Notes: generated by a model not told the origin, from the letters alone. A stretch of 64,000 nt of DNA from Candidatus Latescibacterota bacterium (GCA_965208125.1 OZ242320.1:4096001-4160000); one strand, 5' to 3'; shown: positions 1-64,000, numbered from the stretch's first letter. Made by a program: numbers and translations.

Positions 1-997
1 CATACATCTGATAGAATACGATGTCGGTAAATTGGCTTGTAATGGGCAATAGGGTATCCAGCGCATCTGTGTTGGCGTTGATTTTGTCGCCGACAAACAG
101 ATGGTTCGGATCGTATCGGCGGATCGCATCCCGCGTTGTCTGGTAGTATTTTGCGACGACTTTTTGGAGGAATTCAATATTGTCGCGGGTTTCGTTTCCA
201 TTGGAAAGATCAGTGTGCAGCCGCCAATTCTCGGCTGTTTGGAGCGCGTCAAATGAATCGAATTGTGTGCCATAAGTTGTGTTGAAGTCGCTGATTTGCC
301 CGCGATAGATATCGCGCATAGTCTGAACATAAGCCTTTTTGCCCGGTGCATTGGCACCAAAATTGCGCAGTCGCCGCGGCCAGCCGATTCGCGCTTCTCG
401 CCGTGCGCCGCCAATTACGTCGGGGCGTTCTCGGCAATCTTCTTCTGTAAATAACGGACAGTCGGTCATGGCATAACCGAGCAGGAAGGGATCATCTTTT
501 GCAGGCGCGGCAAACTCCTTTGCCATCTGATCGCAGTGTGAGGCAAATGTTTCTGAAAAGACATCCAAAAAATTGCTGTCGGGTATTTCTGCCTGCCAGT
601 GTGGGATATCGACAAAGTGAATCGACTGCATATAGGGGATAGATGGCTGCGGGCGATTGACGGCTGACAACTCTGTGTGTACGCCTACTGTGTTGAAGCC
701 GTATTGACGACATGTTTGCAGGAACCAGGTTTTGAGGGCAGGTGTGAATTCGCGGCTGTCCAGATTGTCTATGCCCAACCGCTTTTTCCAGGCTTCGCGA
801 TTGTAGTCCTGTTTCCACAGATGGGGATGCAGGTGGTTTATTCCGAAGCTCAGAAACGCATTTCCCTCGGGCGTTACGAGCCACCATCTTTCGTCTTTTT
901 CTATGCGAAAAAAACCAGTTGCCTCAAATTTTTTACCGGTCCAGCCGCCGTATTGATCGCGTTCGGGGGTGTCCCGGTGCGATTTATGTTTTTGCAT
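1..997 (-). CDS. GH50/agarase-like glycoside hydrolase, runs off left edge (absent from the ORF track)
   Basis: Manual translation from ATG at 997 is open to position 2: MQKHKSHRDTPERDQYGGWTGKKFEATGFFRIEKDERWWLVTPEGNAFLSFGINH...YYQTTRDAIRRYDPNHLFVGDK, motifs typical of beta-agarase-like enzymes. Confidence 0.75.
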   Translation of the reverse strand, partial: MQKHKSHRDTPERDQYGGWTGKKFEATGFFRIEKDERWWLVTPEGNAFLSFGINHLHPHLWKQDYNREAWKKRLGIDNLDSREFTPALKTWFLQTCRQYGFNTVGVHTELSAVNRPQPSIPYMQSIHFVDIPHWQAEIPDSNFLDVFSETFASHCDQMAKEFAAPAKDDPFLLGYAMTDCPLFTEEDCRERPDVIGGARREARIGWPRRLRNFGANAPGKKAYVQTMRDIYRGQISDFNTTYGTQFDSFDALQTAENWRLHTDLSNGNETRDNIEFLQKVVAKYYQTTRDAIRRYDPNHLFVGDKINANTDALDTLLPITSQFTDIVFYQMY

Positions 998-1028
998 TTG
1001 GATGCCTTTGAATAGTTATCAGAGTATT

Positions 1029-1880
1029 TTACTCGGCGGGCACAACGTCTCGCGTGACTTCCTGAACTTTACCGGGGTGGGTTCGTCCTCTTATCCACAT
1101 AATGGGCTGGCCTTTGCCGGCGTTTTCCGGATTCATCCATTCTGCTTGCGCGCTCAGATAATGCGATACATAGCTGCGTCTAAATCGCTGGCTGTGATTA
1201 TTTGTGCTTTTGTGCAGCAGGTGGGAGTGAAACCAGATGGCCGAACCGGGAGGGACTTCTACGGGAATGCCATCCTCATCGCGAGCATTGCGCGCGAGTT
1301 TAAATTCATTTTGCTGTGATCCCTCAATGTCATCGTGTTCGGAGATTGCCTGTTTGTGACTGCCGGGGATTACGTAGAGGCAGCCGTTTTCGCGATCGGC
1401 GGGGTCAATTGCCGTCCAGGTGCCGACGGTCGTTGCTGTTCTGAACCGCCTGCCAAAATAAAATTTGTCCTGGTGCCAGGGGAATCCCAATCCGATTTCG
1501 GGTGCTTTCCAGATGAAGAGGTTGTTGATGCCCAGAATGTCTGGCCCGAGAATATCGACAACCGGGTCTGTCAAGCGTGGATCGCGCACGCGGGCAAGGA
1601 ATTCCGGGATGTAGCAACTGGGGTGATGGATTTTGTGCATGGCGTAGATGCCAGACCGCGTGTCTTTGCCGTCTCGGACAAGGGCATTCTGGTTGATGTG
1701 GACCATTGGCATTTTTCGTTTGCCTGCGACAATGTCTTCGGCGACCTGTCGCAGGTCGTCGTTTTCTTCATGTGAAAAGACGTTTTCGCGCACAAAATAT
1801 CCATTGCGTTCCCAGTGCTGAATTTCATCGGGTGTCATGCGATTGGTATTTGTTTTTAATGGTGTTGCTGGGTTTTTCAT
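1029..1880 (-). CDS. Phytanoyl-CoA dioxygenase (PhyH) family Fe(II)/2OG dioxygenase
   Basis: WHQD motif, ENGCLYVIPGSH, distal H in HSHLLHKS, RRS. Confidence 0.9.
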   Translation of the reverse strand: MKNPATPLKTNTNRMTPDEIQHWERNGYFVRENVFSHEENDDLRQVAEDIVAGKRKMPMVHINQNALVRDGKDTRSGIYAMHKIHHPSCYIPEFLARVRDPRLTDPVVDILGPDILGINNLFIWKAPEIGLGFPWHQDKFYFGRRFRTATTVGTWTAIDPADRENGCLYVIPGSHKQAISEHDDIEGSQQNEFKLARNARDEDGIPVEVPPGSAIWFHSHLLHKSTNNHSQRFRRSYVSHYLSAQAEWMNPENAGKGQPIMWIRGRTHPGKVQEVTRDVVPAE

Positions 1881-2263
1881 ATACGATCTCCTGAGTTTAA
1901 ATAGGTATCGGGAGCCTCACGCGCGCCGATCCAGACCTGATTGCCATCGGGATCGCGAACTCGAAATTCTGTCAGGCCGTAAAAAGTTACCCGGATAGGA
2001 TCGGGTTCGAAACCCGCGGCGATCACGCGGTCTCTCAATGTTTCAATATCGGATGTATAGTAGTAAACGACGTTTGAGGCATTCGATTCCGTGCGTATCG
2101 AACGGTCTATCATCACCTGGCATCCGTGTTCACCTTCCAGCAGGGCGTGGCCCCACTCGTCTTTACGTTGGATGACCTGGAACCCCAGGCCTTGTGAGTA
2201 GAAGGTTATGGCTTGATCCAAATCGGTTATTGGAACCATTGCGGTGATGCGATGTATGCTCAC
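1877..2263 (-). CDS. VOC/glyoxalase/bleomycin-resistance family protein
   Basis: DLDQAITFY..LGF and YGLTEFRVRDPDGN motifs. Confidence 0.85.
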   Translation of the reverse strand: MSIHRITAMVPITDLDQAITFYSQGLGFQVIQRKDEWGHALLEGEHGCQVMIDRSIRTESNASNVVYYYTSDIETLRDRVIAAGFEPDPIRVTFYGLTEFRVRDPDGNQVWIGAREAPDTYLNSGDRI

Positions 2264-2370
2264 TGTTTTTTCCCCTAATGATTGATCGGAAAGGGAGATG
2301 GATCCCTGGGGAATGAATCCAGATCGACCACCGATCTGTTTGGACGGTAAAATCTGTGAACTAACGCGTT

Positions 2371-2835
2371 TTATTGAAGCACCGGGTCTATAGGTGCTGG
2401 CAGTTTTTTCATCTGAACATGTGTAGAATCTTCATCGACGATTGAAAATCCCAGTCTCTGGTAGAAGGCGATGCCGCGGATGTTGATCTTTAATACTTGC
2501 AGATTCACAGCTTTCCCTGAAACATCGGCATCAGCGAGAATGCGTGTCATGCACGCTGACCCGATTCCTATACCCTGATACTCTGGATGAATAAAAAACT
2601 GATGGACCTTGAGAGAATCGGAAGTACAGGATGTGGAGAAGAAGCCAATATCGTTCCCTTGAAATTGGATAATGCAAAAATCCTGCGAATCAAACCGCTT
2701 ATTGTGTAATCCCCTCTGATGTGTATCGTCCCAGCCCTCGACTTGCTCTACATATTCGCGGAATGCGGCCTTCTTTACGGCAAAGACAAAGTCACTGTCA
2801 ACTGCATCTGCCTTGCGAATGCTCAACTCTTCCAT
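2371..2835 (-). CDS. GNAT N-acetyltransferase
   Basis: IHPEYQGIGIGS acetyl-CoA motif; AFYQRLGF. Confidence 0.9.
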   Translation of the reverse strand: MEELSIRKADAVDSDFVFAVKKAAFREYVEQVEGWDDTHQRGLHNKRFDSQDFCIIQFQGNDIGFFSTSCTSDSLKVHQFFIHPEYQGIGIGSACMTRILADADVSGKAVNLQVLKINIRGIAFYQRLGFSIVDEDSTHVQMKKLPAPIDPVLQ

Positions 2836-2872
2836 AGAGAGCCCTTTTGTTGCCCTATTTGTTCAAGCACTC

Positions 2873-3217
2873 TTAAGTAGGATCATATATGCAGGCATCC
2901 AGAATACTCAACGCCTCATTAAGCACAGATTGAGGTGCTTTAGATACGCGCTTTACCTTTCGGCTGTTGTAATCGATTGATTTAATCTGCTCCACCATGA
3001 TATACCCACTAATGGCCTGTCCTTTGGGGATCGCAACATGAAGGGGAATATCTCTAAAGGTGTTGGTGATTGGGCACACCATAGCAAGTCCTGTATGCCT
3101 GTTAAATAGTGTATTACTGATTACCAAAGCGGGACGACGGCCTCTTTGCTCATGTCCGGCCTGTGGATCAAAAGTCAAAATGACGAAATCACCTTTTTGG
3201 GGAATATATTCTGGCAT
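2873..3217 (-). CDS. mazF: PemK/MazF family toxin
   Basis: FDPQAGHEQRGRRPALVIS...CPIT. Confidence 0.92.
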   Translation of the reverse strand: MPEYIPQKGDFVILTFDPQAGHEQRGRRPALVISNTLFNRHTGLAMVCPITNTFRDIPLHVAIPKGQAISGYIMVEQIKSIDYNSRKVKRVSKAPQSVLNEALSILDACIYDPT

Positions 3218-3466
3218 TTACCACACTTCTTTCCCTATAGGCTTTCCCCAGTCCAACTCTTCGACTTGATAATTTTGGGGCATTTTGGAAACCAGTTCAC
3301 GCAAATCGTATTTTCCCCGCACTTTTGTCACAGGTTCAACAATGATTTGTCCCTTTTTAACAGAGATATTGACTTGATCTCCAACATTGATATGGGCTTC
3401 CTTCAGAATAGCTTTAGAAAATCGGAGTCCCTGACTATTGCCCCATTTTTGAACTTTAGTCACCAT
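3218..3466 (-). CDS. mazE: MazE/AbrB family antitoxin
   Basis: KVQKWGNSQGLR...DWGKPIGKEVW; directly upstream of the toxin. Confidence 0.92.
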   Translation of the reverse strand: MVTKVQKWGNSQGLRFSKAILKEAHINVGDQVNISVKKGQIIVEPVTKVRGKYDLRELVSKMPQNYQVEELDWGKPIGKEVW

Positions 3467-3496
3467 CGTGTATCTCCTTGAAATCAGCAGTCCCAG

Positions 3497-3537
3497 ATGT
3501 ATATCCGAAGTATATCCAAATTGCAGTCAACTTGCAA
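3497..3537 (-). promoter_or_regulatory. Putative sigma70 promoter and autoregulatory operator of mazEF
   Basis: Minus strand TTGCAA-17 bp-TATACT; GGATATAC repeated across the -10. Confidence 0.5.
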
Positions 3538-3565
3538 GGGATTTTATAGCAAACGGCACATCGCC

Positions 3566-4024
3566 TTATTTAGTCTCGATTGGTTTCACCATTTCAAGGT
3601 ACCAGGGAACAAATCCACAGTCCCGATAAAATGCCAGGATGTCATCGAAACGCTTCGCTGCCGAGTAGAGTCGCATGTGACTGAATCCAGCGGCTTTTGC
3701 TTTTGATTGGGCAGTTTTGACCAGTCGCTGGCCTATTCCACTATGGCGAGATTCTGGACGCACATACAGTTCAACAATTTCAAGAATACGGCTGCCTTCA
3801 GGGAATACACATTCGCCATCATACGACCGTTCTACACAATAGATGAATCCAATAGGCTCACAGCCATCTATCGCCAAAAAGAGCCAATCCAGGTCGCGAT
3901 CATTCCATACTTCCACCGGATCGGGCCCATAACCCCATATTGCGCCTTCGGATGCCAGATCTTCCTGCAGCGAAAGGATAGCGGCTATATCCGACTTGTT
4001 TGACTTACGGATTGTGACGGTCAT
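3566..4024 (-). CDS. GNAT N-acetyltransferase
   Basis: LYVRPESRHSGIGQRL; FYRDCGF. Confidence 0.88.
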   Translation of the reverse strand: MTVTIRKSNKSDIAAILSLQEDLASEGAIWGYGPDPVEVWNDRDLDWLFLAIDGCEPIGFIYCVERSYDGECVFPEGSRILEIVELYVRPESRHSGIGQRLVKTAQSKAKAAGFSHMRLYSAAKRFDDILAFYRDCGFVPWYLEMVKPIETK

Positions 4025-4058
4025 TTTGTATTCCGTCCATTACTGGCAATTTCTCTAT

Positions 4059-4877
4059 CTAACCAAACCGCTCCTCTAACCATGTAACGGCAAAATCGGT
4101 CAGAACCCTGGCGTCGAACAAATAGGATTCCGCGGCTCCAACCCGTCTCGTTGCATAGCTTGCCTGGGTCATATATTTCTCTACAATGGAAAGAAAATAG
4201 TCGCCATTGGGGGGGCCCCAATCGACGATGCCACCAGAAGTGTCAAATTGCTCAAATTCTATCCATTCGCACTTGCCATCACGCAAGATGGGCCACCGAT
4301 AGCGCTCAGTTTTCTTGTTGGGCACGTCAGCAATATGCTCTGCGTAATGTAGAATCGTCAGGCTATCAAAGAGTGGTCCAAGCAGTAGTATTCGCCCCCT
4401 GACTTTGCACAATTTTGCGAGAGGGGAGCCTGCACCATAACCAAATTGGAGGGGATGATCCGATGTGATCCACTCCGCTTTTGCGCCAATAGCCGCCATT
4501 CTTGCTTCGGGATGGTTGCTGCAATACGCGCCGGGCCATGTTCGGAGGTGCTCGGTGAGGATGCTCCACTTGCGGAAGGCGCGTGTCCGTTTAGGATCAA
4601 ACGGTGGGCATTCCGCCAGGTACGCTTTTTGCCAGTCCTCTGGCCAATCTTCAATTTCGTTCAGAGGCTCCTCGCATTTTATGTACATCATCAAGGTGCC
4701 CGAAGGTCCAATCACGTCCAAAATTGCCTGAATCACAATATCTGGTCCGCCAACGATCCAGCCGACTGCCTTGACAGACGCGTGCAGCATCAGGGTATCG
4801 CCCGGGACAATCCCCAGTTTTGATAAGTCAGATACCAGCTTGCTTCGCGTAATTACTGGCAAATCTATTTTCGCCAT
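4059..4877 (-). CDS. aac(3): Aminoglycoside 3-N-acetyltransferase (Antibiotic_NAT) family
   Basis: LGIVPGDTLMLHASVKAVGW..GG, GTLMM, GAGSPL, TILHYAE, FDT motifs. Confidence 0.88.
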   Translation of the reverse strand: MAKIDLPVITRSKLVSDLSKLGIVPGDTLMLHASVKAVGWIVGGPDIVIQAILDVIGPSGTLMMYIKCEEPLNEIEDWPEDWQKAYLAECPPFDPKRTRAFRKWSILTEHLRTWPGAYCSNHPEARMAAIGAKAEWITSDHPLQFGYGAGSPLAKLCKVRGRILLLGPLFDSLTILHYAEHIADVPNKKTERYRWPILRDGKCEWIEFEQFDTSGGIVDWGPPNGDYFLSIVEKYMTQASYATRRVGAAESYLFDARVLTDFAVTWLEERFG

Positions 4878-4914
4878 TGCGATCTCCTTTTTAGATCAGG
4901 TTTATCATAATCCT

Positions 4915-6186
4915 CTATTTATCTAAACCAGGTACAACTGCGCCATGTGACAAAAGCAATTCGCGCAAATCGGAAATTGGGACTTCTCGAGGTGTGGTTT
5001 CCAGACGCACAGATAATGCAGCGGCAGCACCCACAGCCTGTCCCATGGCCATAGATGACGCCTGTACTCGTAAAGCGGAATTCGCCAACCGGTCACTGCT
5101 CACGCTGCGACCAGCGACCAGCAAATTGCGACTCTCTTTGGGGATAAGCGCGCGAAGAGGGACGGTGGGAACGATTCCTTTGGATAGCGGTCTGGGTTTG
5201 ATGCCATCGCGGTCGTGGAGATCGATGGGGTAAAAAGAATAGGATACGGCGTCATCAAAAAATCGTCCACTCGTGTAATCTTCATGGGTTATTTGCACAT
5301 CGCCAACAATGCGATAGGTCTCACGCACGGCTGTTTCTGCCTGAGCTTTCAAAACACATGCGTTTTCGCACCCTGGTAGAGAACGCACAAAACGCAGAAT
5401 CCGCAATAGTGCCTGTCGCCCTGCTATGTTGGTTTTTGTATGCCTGTCAGAGGTTGATGCATCAGCACCAAATACATGCTGGGCATTTCCGCCTTTTCGA
5501 AGATAACTGATAAATCGCACCTGTGGATTCATTACATCGCCGTGTTGCAAGCGGCCATCTTTAATGGCAGCAGAAAAATGCGCCTGAATGACCTCCTCAT
5601 CCAGTGATTCGACATTATAACCCCCGAGTTCAAAAATCAACGTGCCGGGCTGGGTTTCTTGTTCGCGCAAACGCGGAAAACCGATCTGCCCGACAATATT
5701 TGCGCCACCAGTACAATCAATTAACTGTTTGGCCCATATAGTGCGGCGCATGCTTTTGCCTGTGGTTTCTACTGTCCAGCCCGTGTCCGTTTCTGAAACC
5801 CGAGTCGGTATTTCGTAGAAATGTAATTTCACCCCTGCTTGCGTACAGGCTTCTTCGACGAGTGCGGCATATACTGGACCGTTGATGCGAATTTGGTGCA
5901 TCCAATGGCGCTCGGGAGGTACTGAAAAATCTGGCAATTTTCTACTGTCAAGTGCCACAGCTTTTGTAACGAGTTCCCACCCAATACCCGCAATAATTTG
6001 CTTTCCCCAGGCGTGAAAAAGGCCCGGAAACGAAACCCCACCCGTTGTGGTTACACCGCCGAGTTGGCTACCGGATTCAATCAGGGCTGTGCGAAGTCCC
6101 GTGCGCCCAGCTTGTACCGCAGCAATGGTGCCCGCTGTACCACCGCCAATGACCAGAACATCTACATTTTCTTTCATGTGCTCCAT
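4915..6186 (-). CDS. FAD-dependent oxidoreductase (FAD_oxidored family)
   Basis: VLVIGGGTAG, IDCTG, VRETYRIVG, NLLVAGRSVS..LRV..MAMGQAVG. Confidence 0.88.
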   Translation of the reverse strand: MEHMKENVDVLVIGGGTAGTIAAVQAGRTGLRTALIESGSQLGGVTTTGGVSFPGLFHAWGKQIIAGIGWELVTKAVALDSRKLPDFSVPPERHWMHQIRINGPVYAALVEEACTQAGVKLHFYEIPTRVSETDTGWTVETTGKSMRRTIWAKQLIDCTGGANIVGQIGFPRLREQETQPGTLIFELGGYNVESLDEEVIQAHFSAAIKDGRLQHGDVMNPQVRFISYLRKGGNAQHVFGADASTSDRHTKTNIAGRQALLRILRFVRSLPGCENACVLKAQAETAVRETYRIVGDVQITHEDYTSGRFFDDAVSYSFYPIDLHDRDGIKPRPLSKGIVPTVPLRALIPKESRNLLVAGRSVSSDRLANSALRVQASSMAMGQAVGAAAALSVRLETTPREVPISDLRELLLSHGAVVPGLDK

Positions 6187-6206
6187 ATTGACAATCTCCC
6201 TGTGCT

Positions 6207-6806
6207 TTACTCCTCAGTTTCAGTGTCGCCAAGAGGATGAAGATCAATCGGTGTGAGAATTCCGTAAAATCCGTATTTGATACCTGAGCGGTCTCCTTTT
6301 CCGGGCGGAAAGTATTCTTCTATAAGTGCCAATAATCGACGACTGAATTCGGATGCCTGTTCTTCAGATAGCCGCGCGCGGTTGTGATTGACGGATGTCT
6401 GGAATGTCGAACCGTACAAGCCCTCGGCAGCTTCGCGAAATGCTTGATTGAACTGGCTGATAACATCGATTGGCATGGCCTCTGCAACCTGGTTGTTTGC
6501 GAGGAGGTCCTCTCGAACGCGAATCTTACCCGCTGCTGGCGAACAACGCCATTCATTGGGGTCAGTTTCACCTTCCTTTAAATGTACGACACCTGTTTCT
6601 GCCAGATTTTTCAAGTGATACAGCACCCGGGCATCAGTAATTTCCAATGTCTGCGAGATTTCTGCAACCGACTTTCCGTCGCTAAGAGTTTCGAGGATGA
6701 GCCAACGCAGTGGATCGGCAAGTATGTTCGCGCGGTCATCCTCAATAACGATTACCGTCTCCTTTAAGGCGTTGATCGGAAATGTCAATTCACGCCACGT
6801 ACTCAT
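6207..6806 (-). CDS. ArsR-like winged-HTH regulator
   Basis: LADPLRWLILETL...SVAEISQTL...VLYHLKNLAETGVV. Confidence 0.8.
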   Translation of the reverse strand: MSTWRELTFPINALKETVIVIEDDRANILADPLRWLILETLSDGKSVAEISQTLEITDARVLYHLKNLAETGVVHLKEGETDPNEWRCSPAAGKIRVREDLLANNQVAEAMPIDVISQFNQAFREAAEGLYGSTFQTSVNHNRARLSEEQASEFSRRLLALIEEYFPPGKGDRSGIKYGFYGILTPIDLHPLGDTETEE

Positions 6807-6835
6807 TTAGACTCTCCATTCGTATAATTGAGGGA

Positions 6836-7939
6836 TCACTCTTTGAGGTGGAGAAGTATGTCTTCTGCTTTGCCTTTTAGAAATAGATCCTCTTGATGCA
6901 GAAATTCGGGTCTATTTGGCGAGATTGCTGTAATTAGAGTCCCCTGGTCACGGCAATAACTGATCAAACCATGCTCATCTCTGCCCAGGCCTATGGCGAG
7001 GAGGATTTTTCCTTCCTTTAACCAATTCCACCCCTTTCCGTCAGGTTCGAAATATGTATGGCTTTTCAGATGCACCCTCCTGGATCCCGCCCGTTCATGG
7101 AGTTTGTCATCATTCCCGGTGATGATGCGACGGATTGTACCGATTTCTTCGAGATGTGCCAGTGCCTTGTGGGCAGCATTCGGCTCTGCCTGAATGAATG
7201 CGGCCTGGAACTGCGCGAGTACCTGAGCCAGTCTGTGTGGTTTCTCGATCATCAGATTCGCAACTGTACCTGGAAATGGTTCATGCAGCGGGAAATGCCT
7301 TTCCAATCCTCTCTCTCCCCGAAAGCTTGGAATACCACTTCCCGTTGAGATGCCTGCGCCAGTGATCGCGATTGCGGGACTTTGAGAGAGGAGGTTGGAT
7401 AATTCAGCCAGTGAGACTTTCCTCGCTTCAGCAGGGCTTGCATTCTGACTCACTGGATAGTAATGACTTCGCTCTATAAGGGGATTACCAGAGGCTTCGG
7501 GTTTTGGTCGAAATCGTTCAAGGTGATGATCCCAGAGGTCATCCGCGTTTCCATAGGTTATTGCAAGATGGCTATCTGTGGTCCCACGATGGGGTGTCCC
7601 GGATGTGAAATAGATCCGGAATTGATCCCGTTCTTCGGGTTTGGATTGAGACCGACGAAGTGCCTCTTTGAGTGCCAAAACCTTAAAGGACGGTCCGTTT
7701 TCTGAATGCTTTCCTGAGCATGCGACACACAGATCGAGAAGATCGATCGATCCAGTTTCATCTACTCTTAGTCTCCCATAGAAACCAAATGTCCTTTCTG
7801 GGCCAGCGAAAGTCCAACCGAAGTCTGTGAAACTTCCCCAGATGGATCTGTAGCTCTGAAGTTGGGAGGGGGTGAGATCGATTACGTGCATCGTATTTTG
7901 CATCCGTATTATTGAGGATAGAGTCTGAATCTTCCTCAA
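6836..7939 (-). CDS. Sirtuin (SIR2/CobB)-like protein with unknown N-terminal domain
   Basis: TGAGISTGSGIPSFRG, PNAAHKALA, ITGNDD.LHERAGS; start may be ~7903/7891. Confidence 0.75.
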   Translation of the reverse strand: MRKIQTLSSIIRMQNTMHVIDLTPSQLQSYRSIWGSFTDFGWTFAGPERTFGFYGRLRVDETGSIDLLDLCVACSGKHSENGPSFKVLALKEALRRSQSKPEERDQFRIYFTSGTPHRGTTDSHLAITYGNADDLWDHHLERFRPKPEASGNPLIERSHYYPVSQNASPAEARKVSLAELSNLLSQSPAIAITGAGISTGSGIPSFRGERGLERHFPLHEPFPGTVANLMIEKPHRLAQVLAQFQAAFIQAEPNAAHKALAHLEEIGTIRRIITGNDDKLHERAGSRRVHLKSHTYFEPDGKGWNWLKEGKILLAIGLGRDEHGLISYCRDQGTLITAISPNRPEFLHQEDLFLKGKAEDILLHLKE

Positions 7940-7958
7940 TGGAAGTAGCCAGTGAATA

Positions 7959-9089
7959 CTATCCTCTTTGTTTTTTACCTTTCTTTTCCGCTAAATGTAG
8001 GATTCGATGGACAAAGTCGGTTTTGCCTTCTGTATAACCCTTACCAGATGGGTCTTTCTGTAATAACTCTTCTTTGAGTTTTGCATACTCATCTCTTGCT
8101 TCTTGATTAGATCGCAAAAAGTCGCGGAAAAGGATCTGACGATCCCAAAATCCTCCACGGTCAGTATAGGCAATAGACAGATGGAACTTGACAGGGGTGC
8201 CCTTGGCAAAGAAGTGCCGTTCGGTACTGGATCGGGTGGGGTAGAAATCGTACCCTATTTGAGCAAGGGCTTTTATGAAGCCATCGGCATCTTTGTGATT
8301 TTCAATCTTAACGGCAATATCAATTATCGGTTTCGATGGCAGTTTCTCAATGGATGTACTACCGATATGTTCAATCTCTATAGCTGCCGTACCGAATATA
8401 TCCCAGAGCTTACGTTTTTCCACGTTAAATTCCCGCTTCCAGATTGGCTGATATTGAGACAATTGGATTGGAGTAGAATTATTCATTCTTTGACTCAGCT
8501 TTGATATCCACTCGTGTCCAGGATAGCATAGCTCCAAACATCGTTTTAGCCACGCAGCTTCCTCGTAGTTGAGGAGCGGCAGAGTATTCCTGAAGTCGGC
8601 GTTATTCCGATCGATCTGTAGATTGTTCGCCTTATAGAGAAGCTGAATCTGCGGAGAGAGGTAAGGTATTCCGGATTTGGTTATCCGTCCCAGGAAGGAA
8701 ATTGGCCCGGTGATCTTCGGTTCACGACGGAAAACCCACGAATCCCCGTCTGTTTCCATAAGCATCAATTGGATCGCCCAGGGGGATTCTGGCGTACGGC
8801 GCCCCCAAATGTCATTAATGGGTGGATTCAGGAATTCGCCTTTGGCCCATGTCGTAAACTCTGGCGATCTCCTGTCGCTTAGATCCCAATCAGAAAGGTG
8901 TTCCTGGAATATGAGTTGATCGTCCCTGAGGATCAGGATATCCAGGTCCCCATGAGGACGTGTCTGACGACCGATAAAGAGATCAATGGCCCATCCGCCT
9001 GAAATCCACCACGGTGCGGATAGCCCGGATAATAGCTCTTGTGCCTCCATGGGGGAGAGCGGGTCCCAAACATGAGCGGTTTCTTCCAA
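7959..9089 (-). CDS. Fusion of ANT(2'')/Lnu-like nucleotidyltransferase and GrpB-family nucleotidyltransferase
   Basis: N-terminal WWISGGWAIDLF.G.QTRPHGDLDI; C-terminal IEHIGSTSI..L.SKPIIDI, FRDFLR, Y..LK, YTEGKTDFV. Confidence 0.82.
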   Translation of the reverse strand: MEETAHVWDPLSPMEAQELLSGLSAPWWISGGWAIDLFIGRQTRPHGDLDILILRDDQLIFQEHLSDWDLSDRRSPEFTTWAKGEFLNPPINDIWGRRTPESPWAIQLMLMETDGDSWVFRREPKITGPISFLGRITKSGIPYLSPQIQLLYKANNLQIDRNNADFRNTLPLLNYEEAAWLKRCLELCYPGHEWISKLSQRMNNSTPIQLSQYQPIWKREFNVEKRKLWDIFGTAAIEIEHIGSTSIEKLPSKPIIDIAVKIENHKDADGFIKALAQIGYDFYPTRSSTERHFFAKGTPVKFHLSIAYTDRGGFWDRQILFRDFLRSNQEARDEYAKLKEELLQKDPSGKGYTEGKTDFVHRILHLAEKKGKKQRG

Positions 9090-9168
9090 GTAACTTACTC
9101 CTTGTATGCTACGCCAGAACTAAATTTTGCAGAAATCTTATCGCGCGTCTTCTGATTATTAAGGCTGT

Positions 9169-9939
9169 TCAATTTTTGACCAGAATCACGTAGGTCCTGC
9201 GGGAGATCTCTTGAAAGCCAAGTTTCGCTGCAACTCGCAATGAGGCAAAGTTGTCCTCTCCCGTGCTCCAGATGGGAACGCGTCCTTGTTCTTGAAGCCG
9301 ATTCGATACTATTGAGGCGGCGGCACTACACAGACCTCTTTTGCGCCAGGGTTCAAGAGTACCAACGCCAATCTCACCGTGAAGATCAGTGACGCCGCTT
9401 GTGTGGGCTATGGACACCAATCGCCCCGCATCAATAGCGCCCGCTACAATTCCCTCTGAGAGCATTGTTTCCATATCCTCATAACCACCACCCTGTATTT
9501 CGATAGGTGCGGATGCAATTAAGTTTCGGTCCTGCATGGTTAATCTGCGGACGTATTCACTGGTGAACAGTTGGACTGGTCTCGTCAACGAATGATAAAC
9601 ATCGCCGTAGTACCGTACTTTTACTCCGTTGGAATTCTCTATCAGATCACCAAGCGGTTTGGCGCATTGTCGATTCACACCTATACAGTCCCAACCCTCC
9701 ACTAACTGAAGCAATTCCCACAGTGCTCGCGCCTCGGTCCCAAATCCCCTGGGTTCTTCTGAATCGAAGTGGCCCTGGACGATAGCTGCGCTGAAGGAGG
9801 TGGGACTTCCCGCTACAAAAGCCTTGCACAGTTTCTTTCTTAGAAGGTGTACTGCCACTACAGTCTCGGGGGTATCACCCAGAGTTTTCGCGAGTTCGGC
9901 GAAATCCGCTGGATTTAGTTGTGCGATGTCGTATGCCAT
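9169..9939 (-). CDS. GNAT family acetyltransferase
   Basis: EIGVGTLEPWRKRGL; NFASLRVAAKLGF. Confidence 0.85.
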   Translation of the reverse strand: MAYDIAQLNPADFAELAKTLGDTPETVVAVHLLRKKLCKAFVAGSPTSFSAAIVQGHFDSEEPRGFGTEARALWELLQLVEGWDCIGVNRQCAKPLGDLIENSNGVKVRYYGDVYHSLTRPVQLFTSEYVRRLTMQDRNLIASAPIEIQGGGYEDMETMLSEGIVAGAIDAGRLVSIAHTSGVTDLHGEIGVGTLEPWRKRGLCSAAASIVSNRLQEQGRVPIWSTGEDNFASLRVAAKLGFQEISRRTYVILVKN

Positions 9940-11255: not shown

Positions 11256-11270
11256 GAATTCTCCATTTTT

Positions 11271-12077: not shown

Positions 12078-12100
12078 AGTTTATCCTTTTAGCTATCATT

Positions 12101-13225: not shown

Positions 13226-13345
13226 GTGGAATCCTGCCGAGAGGCAGCGAAAGGCAGAGCAATCAGCAAACAAGAACAGCTCCAGAACCTGTCTAATATC
13301 CCGAATGCGATCACAGCAGTCACCTTCATGCAAAAAGTTCTCCTT

Positions 13346-14247: not shown

Positions 14248-14330
14248 TTTGAATCCTCCTCAGCAGCTTTTTTGACTTTCAGTTTACTATCGTGCGGTGA
14301 AAACCTGCATATCTTTTAATTGTTGTCACC

Positions 14331-14370: not shown

Positions 14371-14408
14371 TAGCGGTCTGCAGAACTTCTACATTGCCTC
14401 TTTTTTAT

Positions 14409-49679: not shown

Positions 49680-49792
49680 GCTCAATAATACGACGATGTC
49701 ATAAAATGGAATGTTTCGGATGGGGTAGGGGAGACTACATCTTATTCGTCTCGAATGGGATTTGCATATAGGGATTCATATTCCCTGTCTTT

Positions 49793-52445: not shown

Positions 52446-52490
52446 AATAAGCTATAGACCCATTTGTCCCGACACAATAGAAATACATAC
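52446..52490. repeat. Direct repeat A: orphan copy of the 3' end of the GNAT at 53588
   Basis: 45 bp with 4 mismatches versus 53598-53642. Confidence 0.9.
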
Positions 52491-52581
52491 TGATCAGGCT
52501 GCCATTTCTTCATTGCTTTCTCTCGCAGATTTGTTCATATAAACAAGCCATTATTATCTTTTTAAAACAGGAGGTTATCGG

Positions 52582-56175: not shown

Positions 56176-56222
56176 TGATGTTTACTCAAAAAATGGGTAG
56201 TTCAGCCATGAGGTTGTTATAC

Positions 56223-56273
56223 GCCGCCAGCCCATGAACCGTCTCTATTCAGATGAATCAATCATCTCTCCTT
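56223..56273. repeat. Direct repeat B: orphan copy of the RBS and first codons of the MFS gene
   Basis: 51 bp with 2 mismatches versus 58210-58260. Confidence 0.92.
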
Positions 56274-56289
56274 CATCGTGCAGACTGTC

Positions 56290-57009: not shown

Positions 57010-58248
57010 TCAGGATTTTTTGTCTTCGATACTAACAACAGACGGGATCATCCGGGCAGATGTTCCAAGAACGAGGGTCAGTACTCCCGCCGCTAAAAAC
57101 CACGGTTGCGGGCCAAAAACATCGGTTATGGGACCTATCACGATGAGCCCAAGCATAGTTGTAAATTGCACAGAACTATGAAGAGCGCCAAATACGCGGC
57201 CTTGTAGATGGGGATCGACATTGGCCTGAAGGAGAGCGCGGAGAGGCGCGTTAATTAGCGAGCTACCGACGCCGCTTAAAGCTATACCCGTGATGGCTAA
57301 AGCAAAGCGGGTATGAGGGGCGATACCTACGAGTATTGTTCCAATGCCATACACAATCCAGCCTAAGATCGTCGTCATGATTCGGCGATGAAATCCACCC
57401 CAGGCCCCAACCAGAAGACCTCCCAGGACAATGCCCACTCCCCAGGCAGAATTAAACCAACCAAGTTCGGTAGCACCTCCATTGAAGTGATCTGTTATCA
57501 AGAGGGGTGAGATGGTCATCTTCGTGTTCCCAAATATGTTTAATACGGCAGCAATTAAGATTAAGTTCCGAAGACCAGTCCATCTCCACAAATAACGAAA
57601 TCCTTCCAGCATATCAACCCAGATGCCAACCTCCTGGCTTCGCTTTTCCCCCATCCTTTTGGGCTGTGGAATCATAATGAAGATGAGGGGACCGATAGCA
57701 AGCATCGCCGTCAAAACATCGATGGCCAGTATGATATGTATCTCGAACAAGGCCAGTGCCAGTGCTCCAAGGGGAGGCCCTCCCATGCTGAGTACTCCAT
57801 GCAGGGTTTGGTTCGTCCCCTGAATCCTGGCTAGATGTTTTTCGGGCACCATCAGAGGCGTGGAAGTTATCATCGCCAGGCCCTGGAATGCACGACCAAT
57901 ACTCGCCAGAAAGTTTACTGCGTAGATATGCCAGATCTCGATAATTTCCATCCAGAAAAGACCAGCAAGACCAGCCATGGCTATCGCAACAAGCGTGTCC
58001 GAGACGAGCATTACAATACGGCGGTTCCATCTATCGTTCAGTGTGCCTATGATGGGAGCCAAAAAGACTTCTGGTAGATAGGCGACAAGGACTGAGGTCG
58101 CGAGAATGGTCGCAGATCCCGTCTTTTCCGTAAGCCACCACACCAGGGCAAATTGTGCAACTTGGGTTCCAAGAGATGACAGCGTTTGTCCAGTCCAGAT
58201 GGTAAAGAAGCCGCCAGCCCATGAACCGTCTCTGTTCAGACGAATCAA
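57010..58248 (-). CDS. MFS transporter, macrolide-efflux (Mef/DHA3)-like
   Basis: FFTIWTGQ..S.LG....FALVWWLT..TGSA; DRWNRR; QGRVF. Confidence 0.9.
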   Translation of the reverse strand: MIRLNRDGSWAGGFFTIWTGQTLSSLGTQVAQFALVWWLTEKTGSATILATSVLVAYLPEVFLAPIIGTLNDRWNRRIVMLVSDTLVAIAMAGLAGLFWMEIIEIWHIYAVNFLASIGRAFQGLAMITSTPLMVPEKHLARIQGTNQTLHGVLSMGGPPLGALALALFEIHIILAIDVLTAMLAIGPLIFIMIPQPKRMGEKRSQEVGIWVDMLEGFRYLWRWTGLRNLILIAAVLNIFGNTKMTISPLLITDHFNGGATELGWFNSAWGVGIVLGGLLVGAWGGFHRRIMTTILGWIVYGIGTILVGIAPHTRFALAITGIALSGVGSSLINAPLRALLQANVDPHLQGRVFGALHSSVQFTTMLGLIVIGPITDVFGPQPWFLAAGVLTLVLGTSARMIPSVVSIEDKKS

Positions 58249-58833
58249 TCATCTCTCCTTTTGACCTGAATCGGCAAGAAAGAACGTTCCCCTCTTTTTG
58301 AACCGAAAATTCTCATCGGGTACGATGAACGCCAGTTTATCGCATAAAAAAGAGCCAGACGGGGCTGAATTTTGGAGCCGTGCACAAAGCTCAAGGCTCT
58401 CGTCTATGGATATGAATTCAGCAATGGTCATGTGCGGAGCTATGTTGCGCCGGTGATACGCTTCGTCGGAAAATGCCGATGTTCCGTGGAGGACCTGCTT
58501 TAAATTATCGATAGGCTCTCGTGGCCTTATAGGATACGAGACGCCAGGGTGCCTGGTTGAGGCATGCAGCTTGTCGTAATAAAGCGTGAATGGCTGGACA
58601 TCAGTAATGACGTTGTTGATTTCATCGATAAGATCAGGCGTCATTTCCTGGCTCAAGGGATCTGACAAAGAGATGTGCGTCGGACAGGTGGCAGCAGAGC
58701 GGGGATCATACTTTGCTCGCAAGAGATCGATCTCCTGAGATACCTCTGGAAGGGGCATGATAAGGATGAGGCCTAATCGGTAGTCGCGTTGCCAATCTTC
58801 CCACTTTGATGTGTCTTTTACGTATGGAATCAT
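58249..58833 (-). CDS. 2H phosphoesterase (2'-5' RNA ligase-like) protein
   Basis: Two HxS/T motifs: THIS and PHMT. Confidence 0.82.
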   Translation of the reverse strand: MIPYVKDTSKWEDWQRDYRLGLILIMPLPEVSQEIDLLRAKYDPRSAATCPTHISLSDPLSQEMTPDLIDEINNVITDVQPFTLYYDKLHASTRHPGVSYPIRPREPIDNLKQVLHGTSAFSDEAYHRRNIAPHMTIAEFISIDESLELCARLQNSAPSGSFLCDKLAFIVPDENFRFKKRGTFFLADSGQKER

Positions 58834-61526: not shown

Positions 61527-63137
61527 ATGTTGCGAGTCAGCGACCCCGACCTGATCGCCCACTGGCCGTTCCAGGAAAACCTGAATGACCATTCCAAAAG
61601 CGGCCTGTCCATCCAAAATCACGGGGTTGAAATCGGGGAATCAGGCGGACAAAGAAGCGCCCAATTCGACGGGGAGGGAACCTTTATAGAAGTTCCCTGC
61701 GACCTGTCTATAGGGACAGGCGATTTTTCATGCGCCGGATGGATCTATACGGAAGAAACTGAAGTGGTCGGCGATATTCTCAGCCAATTCGATCCGGAAA
61801 CCCGCCAGGGATGGCAGGTCTCGGTCCTCACCAATACCGGCATGACCTCCACCGCCCAATCGAATTACCGCAACCTCCACTTCGGCATCGACAACGGACA
61901 TCTCGGGGCCTGGACGGATTGCGGGCGTCCCGGTCAGGCGGTCAAGGTATCTGCACTTTCAACAATAGGTGGATACCTGTACGCTGGCACCTTCGAGAAC
62001 GGCAAAGAAGAGGTCGGCCACCTGTGGCGCTATGAAGGGGAGAAACGCTGGACCGATCTGGGCAATCCAGTCGGATGCAACTCCGTCAACGCCGTCGTCG
62101 AATTTCAAGGCGCGCTCTACTGCGCTCTTGGCCGGTATAATAGCATCGGCTCCGCTCTGGGCGATCCCCTGAACACCACCCCCGGCGGCCAGGTCTATCG
62201 GGTTGATGCTGATGGTCAATGGACTTTCTGTGGGCATCCAGGTATCGAAGACGCCACACCCGAAGAAACACCTACCACGGGGCACAACACGGGCAAAGCC
62301 GATAACGCCACCGCCCTCACAGTTTATCAGGGTCGGCTCTACGCCACCAGCCTCTATCGCGAGGGGGCCTTTGTCTATGATGGCGGCACCACCTGGACGC
62401 CCATAGGTCCAGACGTGCGGCTGATGAGTTTCACCATCTATCGGGATCGGCTCTATACCCTCGTCAACGGCGGCCCGGTTCTTCGCTACGAAGGCGGCGT
62501 CGAATGGACCGACTGCGGTTGCCCCGAAACTTCTACCCAGACCTACTCGGCGGTCACTTTTGAGGGCCAGCTTTATGTCGGCACCTGGCCTCAGGGAGAA
62601 GTCTATCGATATGACGGCAATACGACCTGGACCTGTCTGGGCCGGGTCGGATACGAACGCGAAATCATGGCCATGGGACTTTACAACGGCAAGGTCTATA
62701 TTGGCTCGCTCCCAATGGCCAATGTCTGGCGGATGGATGGTAATCAGTTCACATTCCTGGCGTCTCTGGACAGCACGTCTGCGCCCTTGCGGCGGGTCTG
62801 GTCCATGGCCGTTTATCAGGGCCGCCTCTATGCTGGCACCCTGCCGTCTGGGCATGTCTATTCAGTCGAAGCCGGAAAAGTCGCCACCTGGGACCACACA
62901 TTTCCCGAAGGGTGGCGACACGTAGCCGCTGTCAAGCAAGGCGGTGTTCTGACCCTGTACGTCGATGGAATTCCCGTCGCTACAACAGACAGCTTCAATC
63001 CAAAACGCTACGACCTCAACCCCAACTGTCCCCTCTTAATCGGCTTTGGTACCCACGACTATTTCAAAGGCGCCCTGCGAGACATCCGTATCTATCGCCG
63101 GGGCCTCACACAACGGGAAATCCAGCGCCTTCAGTGA
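61527..63137 (+). CDS. LamG/ConA-like domain interrupted by a beta-propeller
   Basis: N-terminal LIAHWPF...FDG...DFS..GWI; central G.LY.GT repeats; C-terminal WRHVAAV..LYVDG..FKG.L.D.RIY.R.L. Confidence 0.78.
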   Translation: MLRVSDPDLIAHWPFQENLNDHSKSGLSIQNHGVEIGESGGQRSAQFDGEGTFIEVPCDLSIGTGDFSCAGWIYTEETEVVGDILSQFDPETRQGWQVSVLTNTGMTSTAQSNYRNLHFGIDNGHLGAWTDCGRPGQAVKVSALSTIGGYLYAGTFENGKEEVGHLWRYEGEKRWTDLGNPVGCNSVNAVVEFQGALYCALGRYNSIGSALGDPLNTTPGGQVYRVDADGQWTFCGHPGIEDATPEETPTTGHNTGKADNATALTVYQGRLYATSLYREGAFVYDGGTTWTPIGPDVRLMSFTIYRDRLYTLVNGGPVLRYEGGVEWTDCGCPETSTQTYSAVTFEGQLYVGTWPQGEVYRYDGNTTWTCLGRVGYEREIMAMGLYNGKVYIGSLPMANVWRMDGNQFTFLASLDSTSAPLRRVWSMAVYQGRLYAGTLPSGHVYSVEAGKVATWDHTFPEGWRHVAAVKQGGVLTLYVDGIPVATTDSFNPKRYDLNPNCPLLIGFGTHDYFKGALRDIRIYRRGLTQREIQRLQ

Positions 63138-64000
63138 CGGCTCTTCAGCCACCAGCGCATGGTATTACTGACCATATCCGCTGCGTCTCGTTGAACCCAA
63201 TGGCCGCTGCTGGGGATGGTGACGAGTGTGTAGTCTTTGTTGATCCAATTCCACGTGTCGCGTAACCCGTCTTTGTCAACAGCCTTGTCTTTCAACCCGT
63301 GGAATTGCAATACGGGCATGGTGAGATTGGGCATCTCCAGGCTCTGGCCAGACCCCGCAGTTAGACCGCTATAGGCCGCCCGGTAGTAGTCGAGCATGCC
63401 CTTGACCGAGGATTGGGAGAACGCATTGATGTAGCGCTGCCGCACTTCGTCTGAGGCATTACCCACCGAAATACGTGTAAGCACCTCGGGCGAGAACCGT
63501 TTTTCGTATCCAGGCGTTTGAAAGTCGGTAATGTATTGCGTATTCCTCTTTTGCTCTGCCGTCGCGTTACGCAGCACGGTGCCGTAGCCCTTCGGGTGAG
63601 TCAGATTGCAGATCACCAGCTTGTTGACGAGTTGCGGATAGTGCATGGCGAACCGCCACGAAATGGCGCCACCCCAATCGTGACCAACGAGGGTGACCGA
63701 GTCGACCTCCAGATCCTTGATCACAGCTTCGACATCCGACATGAGATGGGACATGGTGTAGTGTTTCACGCCTTCGGGCTTGCCGCTCTTGTTGTAGGCG
63801 CGTGTGTCCATAGCGACGGTCTTATAGTTGTCGGAAAGAGCGGCCATCTGTTCGCGCCAGGTATACCAAAAATCGGGAAAGCCATGGACAAAGAGAATAA
63901 CGGGGCCTTCGCCCAAGGTGACGTAGTGGAGTGCCACCCCGTCGTTATCCGTCTCATGGTGCTCGACGCGGTCGAATACATCCGCCTTGACGTTAGCTAT
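63131..64000 (-). CDS. Alpha/beta hydrolase, epoxide-hydrolase-like; 5' end lies off the right edge
   Basis: HGFP, GHDWGG, GHWVQ; frame stays open to 64000 (IANVKADVFDRVEHH...). Confidence 0.88.
   Translation of the reverse strand: MANVKADVFDRVEHHETDNDGVALHYVTLGEGPVILFVHGFPDFWYTWREQMAALSDNYKTVAMDTRAYNKSGKPEGVKHYTMSHLMSDVEAVIKDLEVDSVTLVGHDWGGAISWRFAMHYPQLVNKLVICNLTHPKGYGTVLRNATAEQKRNTQYITDFQTPGYEKRFSPEVLTRISVGNASDEVRQRYINAFSQSSVKGMLDYYRAAYSGLTAGSGQSLEMPNLTMPVLQFHGLKDKAVDKDGLRDTWNWINKDYTLVTIPSSGHWVQRDAADMVSNTMRWWLKSRH

Follow-up and report, generated by a model that had tools for sequence, protein, structure and literature searches.

Gene content and orientation of the locus

The DNA analysed here (the window, 64,000 nucleotides from the MAG of a Candidatus Latescibacterota bacterium with a contamination estimate of 5%) is a segment of an accessory-gene array in which most genes point in one direction. 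Gene calling with a codon model gave 61 genes overlapping the window, 55 of them on the minus strand, and the addition of four minus-strand ORFs dropped by the caller (MazF, a cupin and a 2'-5' RNA ligase, all with Pfam matches, plus one ORF with none) brought this to 59 of 65, in agreement with the roughly 57 of 62 reported in the initial annotation. In the whole block (4,068,000-4,178,500) 97 of the 104 genes are on the minus strand, and the longest unbroken same-strand run of the genome, with 44 genes, lies inside it (runner-up, 36; geometric expectation, about 26). The bias is not one of the genome at large: the leading strand carries just 51% of all genes, and the majority-strand fraction per 61-gene window, with a genome-wide median of 0.62 and a 99th percentile of 0.92, reaches its maximum of 0.95 here. 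By GC skew and dnaA, the array is transcribed head-on to replication, and the same holds by dnaA position in five further genomes if the terminus is assumed to lie opposite dnaA. A single large inversion as the source of this orientation is unsupported, since the local GC skew is about zero and not inverted.

The features on which the analysis turns are the following:

1-64000, minus strand: co-oriented accessory-gene array segment (gene calls, Pfam, mosaic against four same-genus genomes)
2873-3466, minus strand: MazE-MazF toxin-antitoxin module (Pfam; relatives have or lack the unit 2852-3575)
13234-15057, minus strand: module of methyltransferase stub, cupin, 71-aa ORF and PIN gene, missing in the same-genus genomes G008 and G015
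13346-13888, minus strand: stub or chimeric gene in which the first half of a methyltransferase domain is joined to a weak EamA-like piece (Pfam)
14328-14358 and again 18399-18429 (94%), minus strand: terminator-like hairpin, with only these two copies in the genome
19162-19195, minus strand: spacer with R''-like half-site ACGCATAAC right behind a methyltransferase stop, followed by a ribosome-binding site and ATG
20131-32747, no strand assigned: conserved non-mosaic block (Pfam; colinear in relatives)
34329-35430, minus strand: LD-carboxypeptidase gene (Pfam) plus a 34-nt tail with R''-like ACGCATAAC
35458-35499, minus strand: collapsed attC-like site (model R2, 20.7 bits, E 0.0019, filters off)
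42321-42602, minus strand: stub of an NAD-dependent epimerase gene, matching the N-terminal 51 of the 240 positions in the Pfam profile
43646-43730, minus strand: decayed attC-like site, R''-like GGCTAAC ... R'-like GTTTAGA (R2, 34.3 bits, E 2e-07, full model length)
52446-52499 and 53598-53651, no strand assigned: 54-nt direct repeat, 87% (repeat search)
56176-56289, minus strand: spacer with R''-like GCGTATAAC and duplicated junction stubs
56223-56273, minus strand: junction stub, a 51-nt copy (96%) of junction 58210-58260 (repeat search)

The Pfam content confirms that neighbouring genes are functionally unrelated: about 10 GNATs, about nine SAM methyltransferases, two VOC proteins, a NUDIX and an AAC(3)-like protein accompany two beta-lactamase-fold proteins, six sulfatases, a MacB/FtsX permease and an ECF sigma fusion. 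Many genes (the 2.4-kb permease, a 2.4-kb PSD gene, the sulfatases) are above the usual cassette size. Short spacers, part of the initial description, do occur (54% of the co-oriented spacers are under 40 nt) but are not distinctive, the genome-wide figure being 59%; likewise, the shifts in base composition are present but modest (per-gene GC3 s.d. 0.089, 91st percentile). The codon-usage check that had been suggested placed the window at the 0.2 percentile of typicality among all 61-gene windows, that is, as the least typical. As claimed, no integrase, transposase or regularly spaced repeat was found in the window or in the scanned rest of the block. Rfam gave no match in the window at gathering thresholds, and the tRNA-like sequence at 49578-49680 was discarded as an island attachment site because ARAGORN found no tRNA there and the Rfam tRNA-Sec match fell under the gathering threshold. 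Growth of the array by duplication was rejected, since a genome-wide search for paralogues at 50% identity or more found them for just eight of the block's 104 genes. RNA-library contigs cover 26 and 21 of the 30 bins of positions 1-20000; being contigs, they are silent on transcription, strand and operons.

One of the two toxin-antitoxin pairs originally described stands. MazE (PF04014, E 1.3e-06; 3218-3466) abuts MazF (PF02452, E 2.5e-25; 2873-3217), which makes a type II MazEF module, and a joint without it (2836->3561) was found in an RNA-library contig. For the other, no partner of the PIN gene (14605-15060) could be recognised, and the 71-aa ORF that overlaps this gene belongs to no family. 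The module holding the PIN gene is bounded by a 10-11-nt direct repeat, GATT(A/C)CACATG, ending in start codons, and an identical deletion joint (13229->15065) was present in DNA-library and RNA-library contigs. The stubs, broken attC halves and short diverged duplications described at the junctions proved real by Pfam, repeat search and the half-site motif. The junction copied at 56223-56273 joins the end of the 2'-5' ligase gene to the start of an MFS gene, and the 54-nt repeat brackets a plus-strand GH32-like gene (52582-53562). An inverted-repeat search disclosed no hairpin family in the spacers of the window.

attC-like sites and the recombinase

A family of attC-like sites of about 97 nt was assembled from 15 sites in 15 genomes of the order (107 columns, 73% mean identity), with ends ..TAAC and GTTA... 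Pairing holds for 88.9% of 279 cells in this family and drops to 23-39% if the partners are slid. Four of 19 pairs change on both sides, and none of 500 shuffles attained the covariation score. The model built on it (R2), run over the window with filters off, gave two matches, both on the gene strand and both in gene-end spacers (next best, 10.3 bits, E 2.1). That at 43646-43730 lies 17 nt past the stop of a methyltransferase gene (43747-44496) and has a 12-nt internal deletion, and the orthologous junction of G015 bears an intact site (L015 17764-17860, 91.4 bits). The 42-nt site at 35458-35499, just upstream of the LD-carboxypeptidase gene, retains both core/L-box ends while 56 central model positions are reduced to 2 nt. 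In addition, the R''-like motif CG[CT]ATAAC just past stops occurs 10 times in the 30,279 nt of 178 array junctions from five genomes (0.33 per kb, about six distinct junctions once collapsed), compared with 0.026 per kb in other co-oriented spacers. In total, a detectable site relic is present at two of about 60 window junctions and the half-site motif at about three more, and over 90% bear no trace; for the genes at these last, position and orientation are what point to a cassette origin.

Other site searches were negative or unspecific. No strict RYYYAAC...GTTRRRY core pair was found in the window, where random 64-kb stretches have 0.67 per strand, and relaxed TAAC...GTTA scans hit mostly repeats inside giant genes or were unspecific. 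A second model (R1), built from nine true attC sites of genome G031, recovered its own sites and, as a test of that site family only, found nothing in the window (best 9.8 bits, E 3.4), in four genus arrays or in the sister-family loci. For the true integron of G031, neither synteny with the window nor close homologues of its cassette genes there were found. No k-mer was common to more than 12% of the 178 junctions, counts that are inflated by orthologous redundancy.

The genome does carry an IntI-related tyrosine recombinase of 276 aa (4,368,015-4,368,842), 208 kb from the window. Its best NCBIfam match is the integron integrase model (196.9 bits in two stretches; cut-off, 265), and some 40 residues, aligned to the insert in a true IntI, are missing from it. 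IntI itself (TIGR02249 over cut-off) was found neither in this genome nor in any of the 21 genomes of the genus; true integrons exist in the order, with IntI above cut-off in two of 53 genomes. At E <= 1e-40, and with paralogues counted, the recombinase was detected in just 13 of the order's 53 genomes and in two of the 21 in the genus. Three R2 sites (112, 100 and 28.7 bits) follow it on its own strand within 4.6 kb downstream, and the remainder of the recombinase-headed block (about 190 kb scanned) yielded no R2 sites. This block is not contiguous with that of the window, 38 kb of plus-strand genes lying in between.

The layout is more complete in G019, a genome of the sister family, in which an orthologue of the recombinase (83%) heads an array of 148 genes, 127 of them on one strand. 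All its 20 R2 sites are on the array strand and 17 lie no more than 42 kb from the recombinase; farther down, where sites are scarce, come the homologues of window genes, and the distal spacers, mostly without R2 matches, are still long (median 180 nt). Orthologues or fragments of the recombinase were also found upstream of same-strand site clusters in three more genomes (G039, G037 and G023). On a working definition of an insert-less-recombinase array (the recombinase plus same-strand folded sites; no curated definition exists), our genome and G019 each hold one, and the window itself belongs there only through its relics and the homology of its gene content. We infer the link between the window and the recombinase-headed array from the G019 layout and the shared gene families.

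Mosaicism and gene exchange between species

Comparison with four same-genus genomes showed that the array is a mosaic of gene-sized pieces, as the initial annotation had supposed, with none of 107 inverted. Breakpoints fell within 20 nt of a gene end in 121 of 207 cases (58%) against 6.8% of random positions, many of them exactly at start codons. The five arrays hold 103 gene families, of which 14 are common to all and 43 unique, 37 of these 43 on the array strand. Median identity of the modules between species is 92-94%, and that of a core control region 91-94%. Deletion joints display microhomology or none, and internal deletions and stubs were seen; together with a median spacer of 37 nt in the window array against 148-180 nt in the sister family, they bear out the deletional compaction initially proposed. 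The synteny check gave a divided answer, gene-sized mosaic in most of the array but a colinear stretch at about 20.1-32.7 kb. This block comprises four sulfatases (one on the plus strand), a PSD/PSCyt protein with its DUF1552 partner, an alpha-L-fucosidase (plus strand) and an aldo-keto reductase, and forms single colinear blocks with G015 (20131-30086) and G008 (18493-32747), in keeping with the suggested mixture of former cassettes and ordinary genes.

The LD-carboxypeptidase gene was found at 97-98% identity in eight of the 21 genus genomes, in four different contexts. Its third-position identity with G006 is 0.969, compared with a median of 0.843 over 29 genes. In two contexts the homologous stretch reaches from 0-3 nt ahead of the ATG to the stop, or falls short of it, and no remnant of a site is left; context C has the same downstream neighbour as context A minus the 82-nt spacer. 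Judging from these sequences, this is a cassette-like unit that was exchanged recently between species; bounded by site remnants, it is the only hint, and an indirect one, at site recombination. Both this exchange and the turnover need another agent in the genomes that carry no recombinase.

Origin of the array

We believe that the window is probably the old distal part of a giant sedentary integron-like array whose locus is conserved across this Latescibacterota order. Promoter-poor single-gene cassettes, each with a folded attC-like site of about 97 nt at its end, would have been inserted in one orientation beside the IntI-related recombinase without the IntI insert, older cassettes coming to lie ever farther from it. 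Sites would then be lost by collapse of the internal hairpin and by microhomology deletions, leaving a dense series of co-oriented, unrelated genes with no sites between them. Erosion would be almost complete in this genus, where the 38-kb plus-strand block splits the array, and for these two reasons the window would appear to be without integrase and attC. Turnover would go on through whole-gene and intragenic deletions, small duplications, orientation-preserving moves and the occasional exchange of a cassette-like gene between species. Co-orientation is explained here with no new mechanism, since it would result from site-dependent capture at a head far away and subsequent site loss. The site family and its fold, the relics in the window, the intact G015 orthologue, the linkage of recombinase and sites in several genomes, the density gradient of G019, the mosaic and the deletions are all observed; that the recombinase acts on R2 sites, that insertion takes place at the head and that the window genes entered as cassettes is what we infer from them. 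Points against this reading are the scarcity of relics at the window junctions, the gap between the window block and the recombinase-headed one, the failure to find R2 sites past the first 4.6 kb of the latter, the size of many genes and the conserved 12-kb cluster, the low frequency of the recombinase in order and genus, the long but site-poor distal spacers of G019 and the nature of the genome as a MAG.

The same region could instead be an ordinary, vertically inherited accessory hot spot, shaped by illegitimate recombination and by homologous exchange among relatives, on which a few cassettes landed; selection for read-through expression, and the inability of deletions and duplications to invert genes, would then account for the co-orientation. 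That modules are as similar between species as the core control indicates that most pieces are vertical, and the nature of the deletion joints, the many junctions without a site trace, the tight spacing genome-wide and the many other long same-strand runs of the genome agree with this. We nevertheless regard it as unlikely, because it leaves unexplained the gene-strand, gene-end placement of both relics and of the half-sites, the intact G015 site at an orthologous junction, the presence of homologues of window genes in the recombinase-headed, site-bearing array of G019 and the strand of the 37 unique genes.

The initial annotation favoured oriented single-gene capture with no need of an attC-like site, acting over the entire array, with deletional compaction afterwards. 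The LD-carboxypeptidase contexts without a site remnant, the breakpoints lying exactly on start codons and the want of a widely shared junction k-mer speak for it. The two relics, the intact counterpart in G015 and the dense sites behind the recombinase elsewhere speak against it: the same array family points to site-dependent capture, deletions suffice to turn contexts with a site into those without one (as A into C), and the search turned up neither an enzyme nor a shared motif at junctions that would serve this route. As a general account it seems quite improbable; since over 95% of the window's junctions bear no trace, an additional site-independent route may exist alongside site-dependent capture. 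Finally, a chimeric consensus of several strains could mimic a mosaic, the MAG having some estimated contamination and the sequencing runs holding several variants of the same junctions. Five complete single-contig relatives have a like array at the same locus, however, and contigs from run X1 (possibly the source sample, hence not independent) bridge the window-specific junctions 2764-3665, 6781-8031 and 17545-18664 with zero mismatches, so that an assembly artefact is very hard to credit.

The array that we propose resembles sedentary chromosomal integrons (SCIs), such as the Vibrio superintegron with its VCR-type attC sites, in being a long co-oriented chromosomal array of mostly promoter-poor, unrelated small genes (GNAT, methyltransferase, VOC, NUDIX, toxin-antitoxin). 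It also shares with them a folded site, conserved in sequence and specific to the lineage, that follows cassettes and has the ends ..TAAC and GTTA.., an IntI/Xer-type tyrosine recombinase at one of its ends and a cassette content that varies between close relatives. It differs from these in that the recombinase has no IntI insert and reads in the cassette direction, that sites survive only near the recombinase, with the two relics of the window as remnants, and that the equivalent of the attC bottom strand is on the lagging-strand template according to GC skew and dnaA. Loot et al. (2017, PMC5371416) found that disposition in five of 30 SCIs, none of them with more than 22 cassettes. CALINs (2016, PMC4889954) are similar in having cassette-like genes with no integrase nearby and a possible origin by integrase loss or separation; they are defined by at least two attC sites (within about 4 kb), in contrast to the window, where our searches found no canonical attC but two decayed sites of another family, 8.1 kb apart, one of them collapsed and neither matching the canonical model. 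The Xanthomonas integrons with inactivated intI (PMC12444791) likewise combine an ancestral platform, lineage-specific integrase loss and arrays that stay put, but they keep attC and become stable, whereas here sites are eroded and gene-by-gene turnover goes on. A keyword search of the open-access literature, which is not proof of absence, found no account of such arrays in Latescibacterota.

Since integron recognition relies on attC and integrase, a worn-down array of this kind escapes the standard tools, and an annotation would present it as ordinary chromosome. The graded series described here, from the crowding of sites near the recombinase in one family through an intact site in one species and its decayed orthologue in another to collapsed sites and bare half-sites, makes it possible to test the fate of cassettes after capture and the share of accessory content that began as cassettes. 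A candidate phylum and an insert-less recombinase join the systems that behave like integrons and, if the recombinase acts on the sites, this bears on whether the IntI insert is truly required. The orientation relative to replication, opposite to that of most large sedentary integrons, provides a concrete hypothesis for site loss. It is conceivable, at somewhat less than an even chance, that the Latescibacterota of this order carry capture arrays of at least 150 genes run as a conveyor by the IntI-related recombinase without the insert, which is regarded as indispensable to integrons, and that the two blocks of our genome (about 110 and 160 kb, about 5% of the chromosome) are fossil cassettes; were this so, cassette capture would rank among the main ways in which genomes of this lineage grow.

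Orientation and gene content of the array

Combining the ORF listing with a codon-usage gene caller trained on the own genome (5.75 Mb, one contig, 51% GC), we placed 55 of the 61 genes overlapping the window on the minus strand, or 59 of 65 once four minus-strand ORFs that the caller omitted, three of which match a Pfam family, are counted in. The co-oriented block containing the window (genome 4,068,000-4,178,500; 97 of 104 genes minus) holds the longest unbroken same-strand run of the genome (44 genes; the next has 36, and about 26 are expected from the switch rate). In 61-gene windows the majority-strand fraction had a median of 0.62 and a 99th percentile of 0.92, with the genome maximum of 0.95 at this block. 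The co-orientation reported in the initial annotation exceeds the genomic background, and leading-strand genes amount to 51% genome-wide. Cumulative GC skew reaches its minimum at about 2.0 Mb, the position of dnaA, and peaks at about 5.0 Mb. Plus is the leading strand of the replichore that contains the block, which is therefore head-on to replication. Judged from the dnaA position, and with the terminus assumed opposite, the array is head-on in five complete relatives as well.

Functionally unrelated genes are strung together along the window, as previously described, and the Pfam families are diverse:

GNAT acetyltransferases, about ten
SAM methyltransferases, about nine
VOC/glyoxalase proteins, two, and one NUDIX hydrolase
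AAC(3)-type acetyltransferase, one, and two beta-lactamase-fold proteins
MazEF pair and a solitary PIN gene
PhyH dioxygenases, and MFS and EamA transporters
MacB/FtsX permease and an ECF-sigma fusion
Six sulfatases, and a PSD/PSCyt protein with its DUF1552 partner

Many of these genes exceed the usual cassette size. In agreement with the initial annotation, no integrase was found in the window or in the 68 scanned of 77 called flanking genes, nor any transposase or other recombinase, and the only direct repeats of the window were short junction duplications in two copies, none regularly spaced. Other claims held in part. Spacers are short but not distinctively so, since 54% of co-oriented spacers in the window are under 40 nt as against 59% overall, a genome-wide trait. 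Shifts in composition are real, codon usage being the least typical in the genome (0.2 percentile), although the spread of per-gene GC3 is only moderately raised (91st percentile). Of the two toxin-antitoxin pairs proposed, MazEF stands while the PIN gene is solitary; a 71-aa ORF (14409-14624, minus) with no family match, overlapping the PIN gene 3' end by 20 nt, may be its partner in a toxin-first arrangement.

The GH32-like gene at 52582-53562 (plus), one of six breaking co-orientation, is bracketed by a 54-nt direct repeat (87%; 52446-52499 and 53598-53651), and in the same-genus relative G006 it is a separate piece elsewhere in the array. Rfam at gathering thresholds gave zero matches in the window. 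A tRNA-Sec-like sequence (49578-49680, minus) reached 34.6 bits with RF01852 (gathering score 47; E 3.5e-05; full model length); it has an extra base in the anticodon loop, and ARAGORN called no tRNA. It is kept in G015 and G008, and the relatives' differing insertions lie about 75-110 nt upstream (49755/49790). The genome's other regions of lowest codon typicality (2.49-2.55 and 4.26-4.37 Mb) are about 90% minus and head-on to replication, and a second block (4.216-4.375 Mb) is similar in genes (sulfatases, PhyH, methyltransferases).

Mosaic structure among relatives

Records close to the window are labelled Candidatus Latescibacterota MAGs, and the genomes compared are metagenome-assembled. 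Positions 1-20000 were found in 18 of 18 same-genus genomes drawn, at 89-96% identity, colinear and split into gene-sized pieces. In a comparison with four complete relatives (100 kb each; pieces of at least 200 bp and at least 85% identity), none of the 107 pieces overlapping the window was inverted, and 121 of 207 piece ends lay within 20 nt of a gene end, as against 6.8% of random positions, with 100 distinct breakpoints; synteny thus bears out the single-gene-sized units postulated earlier. The array varies from 38.6 to 71.4 kb in length between one shared pair of anchor genes. Of 103 gene families in the five arrays, 14 are common to all and 43 occur in a single genome, 37 of the latter on the array strand. 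A 20-kb core control region aligned as 3-6 long blocks (91-94% identity). Since module identity (medians 92-94%) is the same as in this control, most pieces are vertically inherited and differ by loss. Mosaicism is absent from a 12-kb stretch at about 20.1-32.7 kb that encodes sulfatases, PSD/DUF1552 and a fucosidase.

The compaction and gene stubs noted from the sequence were confirmed. Some deletions span whole genes, from just past a stop codon to a start codon, some show microhomology of 4-11 nt (e.g. GATT(A/C)CACATG at 13233/15058), and others cut within genes and leave stubs behind; the median spacer is 37 nt. The same deletion joints were seen in contigs of public runs, and three window-specific junctions were bridged by zero-mismatch contigs of run X1, possibly the source sample.

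Attachment sites and recombinases

With the integron-integrase model, no protein of the own genome or of any of 21 genus genomes scored above the cut-off, which was exceeded in 2 of 53 genomes of the order. One of these two, G031, encodes a complete IntI (464 bits) and has true attC sites. A covariance model built from nine of the latter (R1) recovered all nine plus one more; the window (best 9.8 bits, E 3.4, filters off), its own block, the four genus arrays and the sister-family loci were without a match, and a strict core-pair scan of the window yielded 0. Because these tests were negative, the window is neither an integron nor a CALIN by the definition in PMC4889954. Clusters of TAAC...GTTA pairs in a relaxed scan were false, being produced by repeats (107 and 59 nt) internal to a 26-kb ORF outside the window (genome 1,686,431-1,712,894, plus). 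In G031 the true integrase (locus L077, 504-1520) and a partial second copy (L079/L080), the loci lying at about 2,493,564 and 2,158,606 of G031:C1, are each followed on the same strand by the same two genes: a tyrosine recombinase of 284 aa, sharing 45% identity with that of the own genome, and an ORF of 399 aa. The canonical-attC cassettes come next; this looks like a duplicated IntI-recombinase module.

The broken attC halves of the initial annotation were recovered as members of another family. Half-sites (A)CG[CT]ATAAC stand directly past stop codons at several unrelated junctions, at 0.33 per kb in 178 array junctions from five genomes; the remaining co-oriented spacers have 0.026 per kb. 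The array count is inflated by orthologues and really represents about 6 distinct junctions. Two full hairpin sites lie just downstream of the own-genome recombinase. Of 22 sister-family genomes, 20 contain their 3' 22-mer (up to 3 mismatches), usually in several same-strand copies clustered within 36-150 kb, whereas a reversed control pattern gave zero matches in 19 of the 22 and at most 1 in the others; in the own genus, 8 of 20 genomes had matches, near the control level. Fifteen sites from 15 genomes aligned over 107 columns (73% mean identity), with ..TAAC and GTTA.. ends and conserved inner boxes. Pairing in the proposed three-helix hairpin reached 88.9% of cells, against 23-39% with slid partners; covariation was modest. 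The model built from these sites of about 97 nt (R2) matched the window twice, both on the gene strand:

43646-43730, minus: R2 relic, 34.3 bits, E 2e-07, 17 nt past a methyltransferase stop, with a 12-nt internal deletion
35458-35499, minus: R2 relic, 20.7 bits, both ends retained, centre deleted

The junction orthologous to 43646-43730 holds an intact site in G015 (91.4 bits); in G006 and G008 the model found one or two weak sites, in G017 none. The relics number only two, plus about three half-sites, per some 60 window junctions. The 3' flank of a small nucleotidyltransferase gene (44497-44534, minus), GCCGACAAGACGTAACCTTGTGCA, follows another gene, nearly unaltered, in a locus of the sister family (L060, about 16517-16560), and may be another conserved junction element.

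The sole IntI-like recombinase of the own genome (4,368,015-4,368,842, minus) has the integron-integrase model as its best NCBIfam match, under cut-off and in two stretches; compared with the G031 IntI, about 40 residues are absent at the IntI-specific insert, and the catalytic-region motifs align. Downstream of this recombinase, three same-strand R2 sites occur in the first 4.6 kb, and none was found in the remaining 190 kb or so of the second co-oriented block. In G019, of the sister family, the orthologue (83%; 2,359,954-2,360,661) heads a region with 127 of 148 genes and all 20 R2 sites on its strand, 17 of the sites within 42 kb of the recombinase and often 0.6-1 kb apart. Sites are rare 57-113 kb further down, where homologues of window genes (AAC(3), methyltransferase, EamA) occur. 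Recombinase orthologues or fragments are also upstream of same-strand site clusters in three other genomes (G039, G037, G023). The spacer median is 148-180 nt in G019 against 37 nt in the window, consistent with compaction in the own genus.

Among 21 genus genomes, 8 carry the LD-carboxypeptidase gene (34363-35430), with an identity of 97-98% in every case. Its third-codon-position identity was 0.969 with G006 (median of 29 shared genes, 0.843), 0.958 with G008 (median 0.895) and 0.98 with G015 (median 0.895); the adjoining HAD gene is among the most diverged. Two of its four contexts keep an R2-type site remnant before the gene and a ACGCATAAC tail after it, and in the remaining ones both flanks are deleted. 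The gene looks like a cassette-like unit recently spread laterally; alternatively, it may have spread by homologous exchange. The recombinase is absent from most genomes carrying it.

Origin of the array

A keyword search of the open-access literature found no published account of such arrays in Latescibacterota. The attC-independent route of capture put forward initially is not needed, given the R2 relics in the window and the intact G015 site. In our view the window most probably represents an old and distal portion of a very large, sedentary, integron-like array whose sites have eroded; the recombinase would act on R2 sites. The window block and the recombinase-headed block are separated by 38 kb of plus-strand genes, and the suggested link between them rests on one sister-family array (G019). 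Co-orientation would then date from oriented insertion and persist because neither deletions nor duplications invert genes.

Site loss may have been helped by orientation, since for a minus-strand array on this replichore the equivalent of the attC bottom strand is the lagging-strand template. Loot et al. (2017, PMC5371416) give this arrangement for only 5 of 30 sedentary integrons, always small arrays, and show it to favour folding and excision. We hypothesize that the cassettes persisting under such an orientation would be those with destroyed sites.
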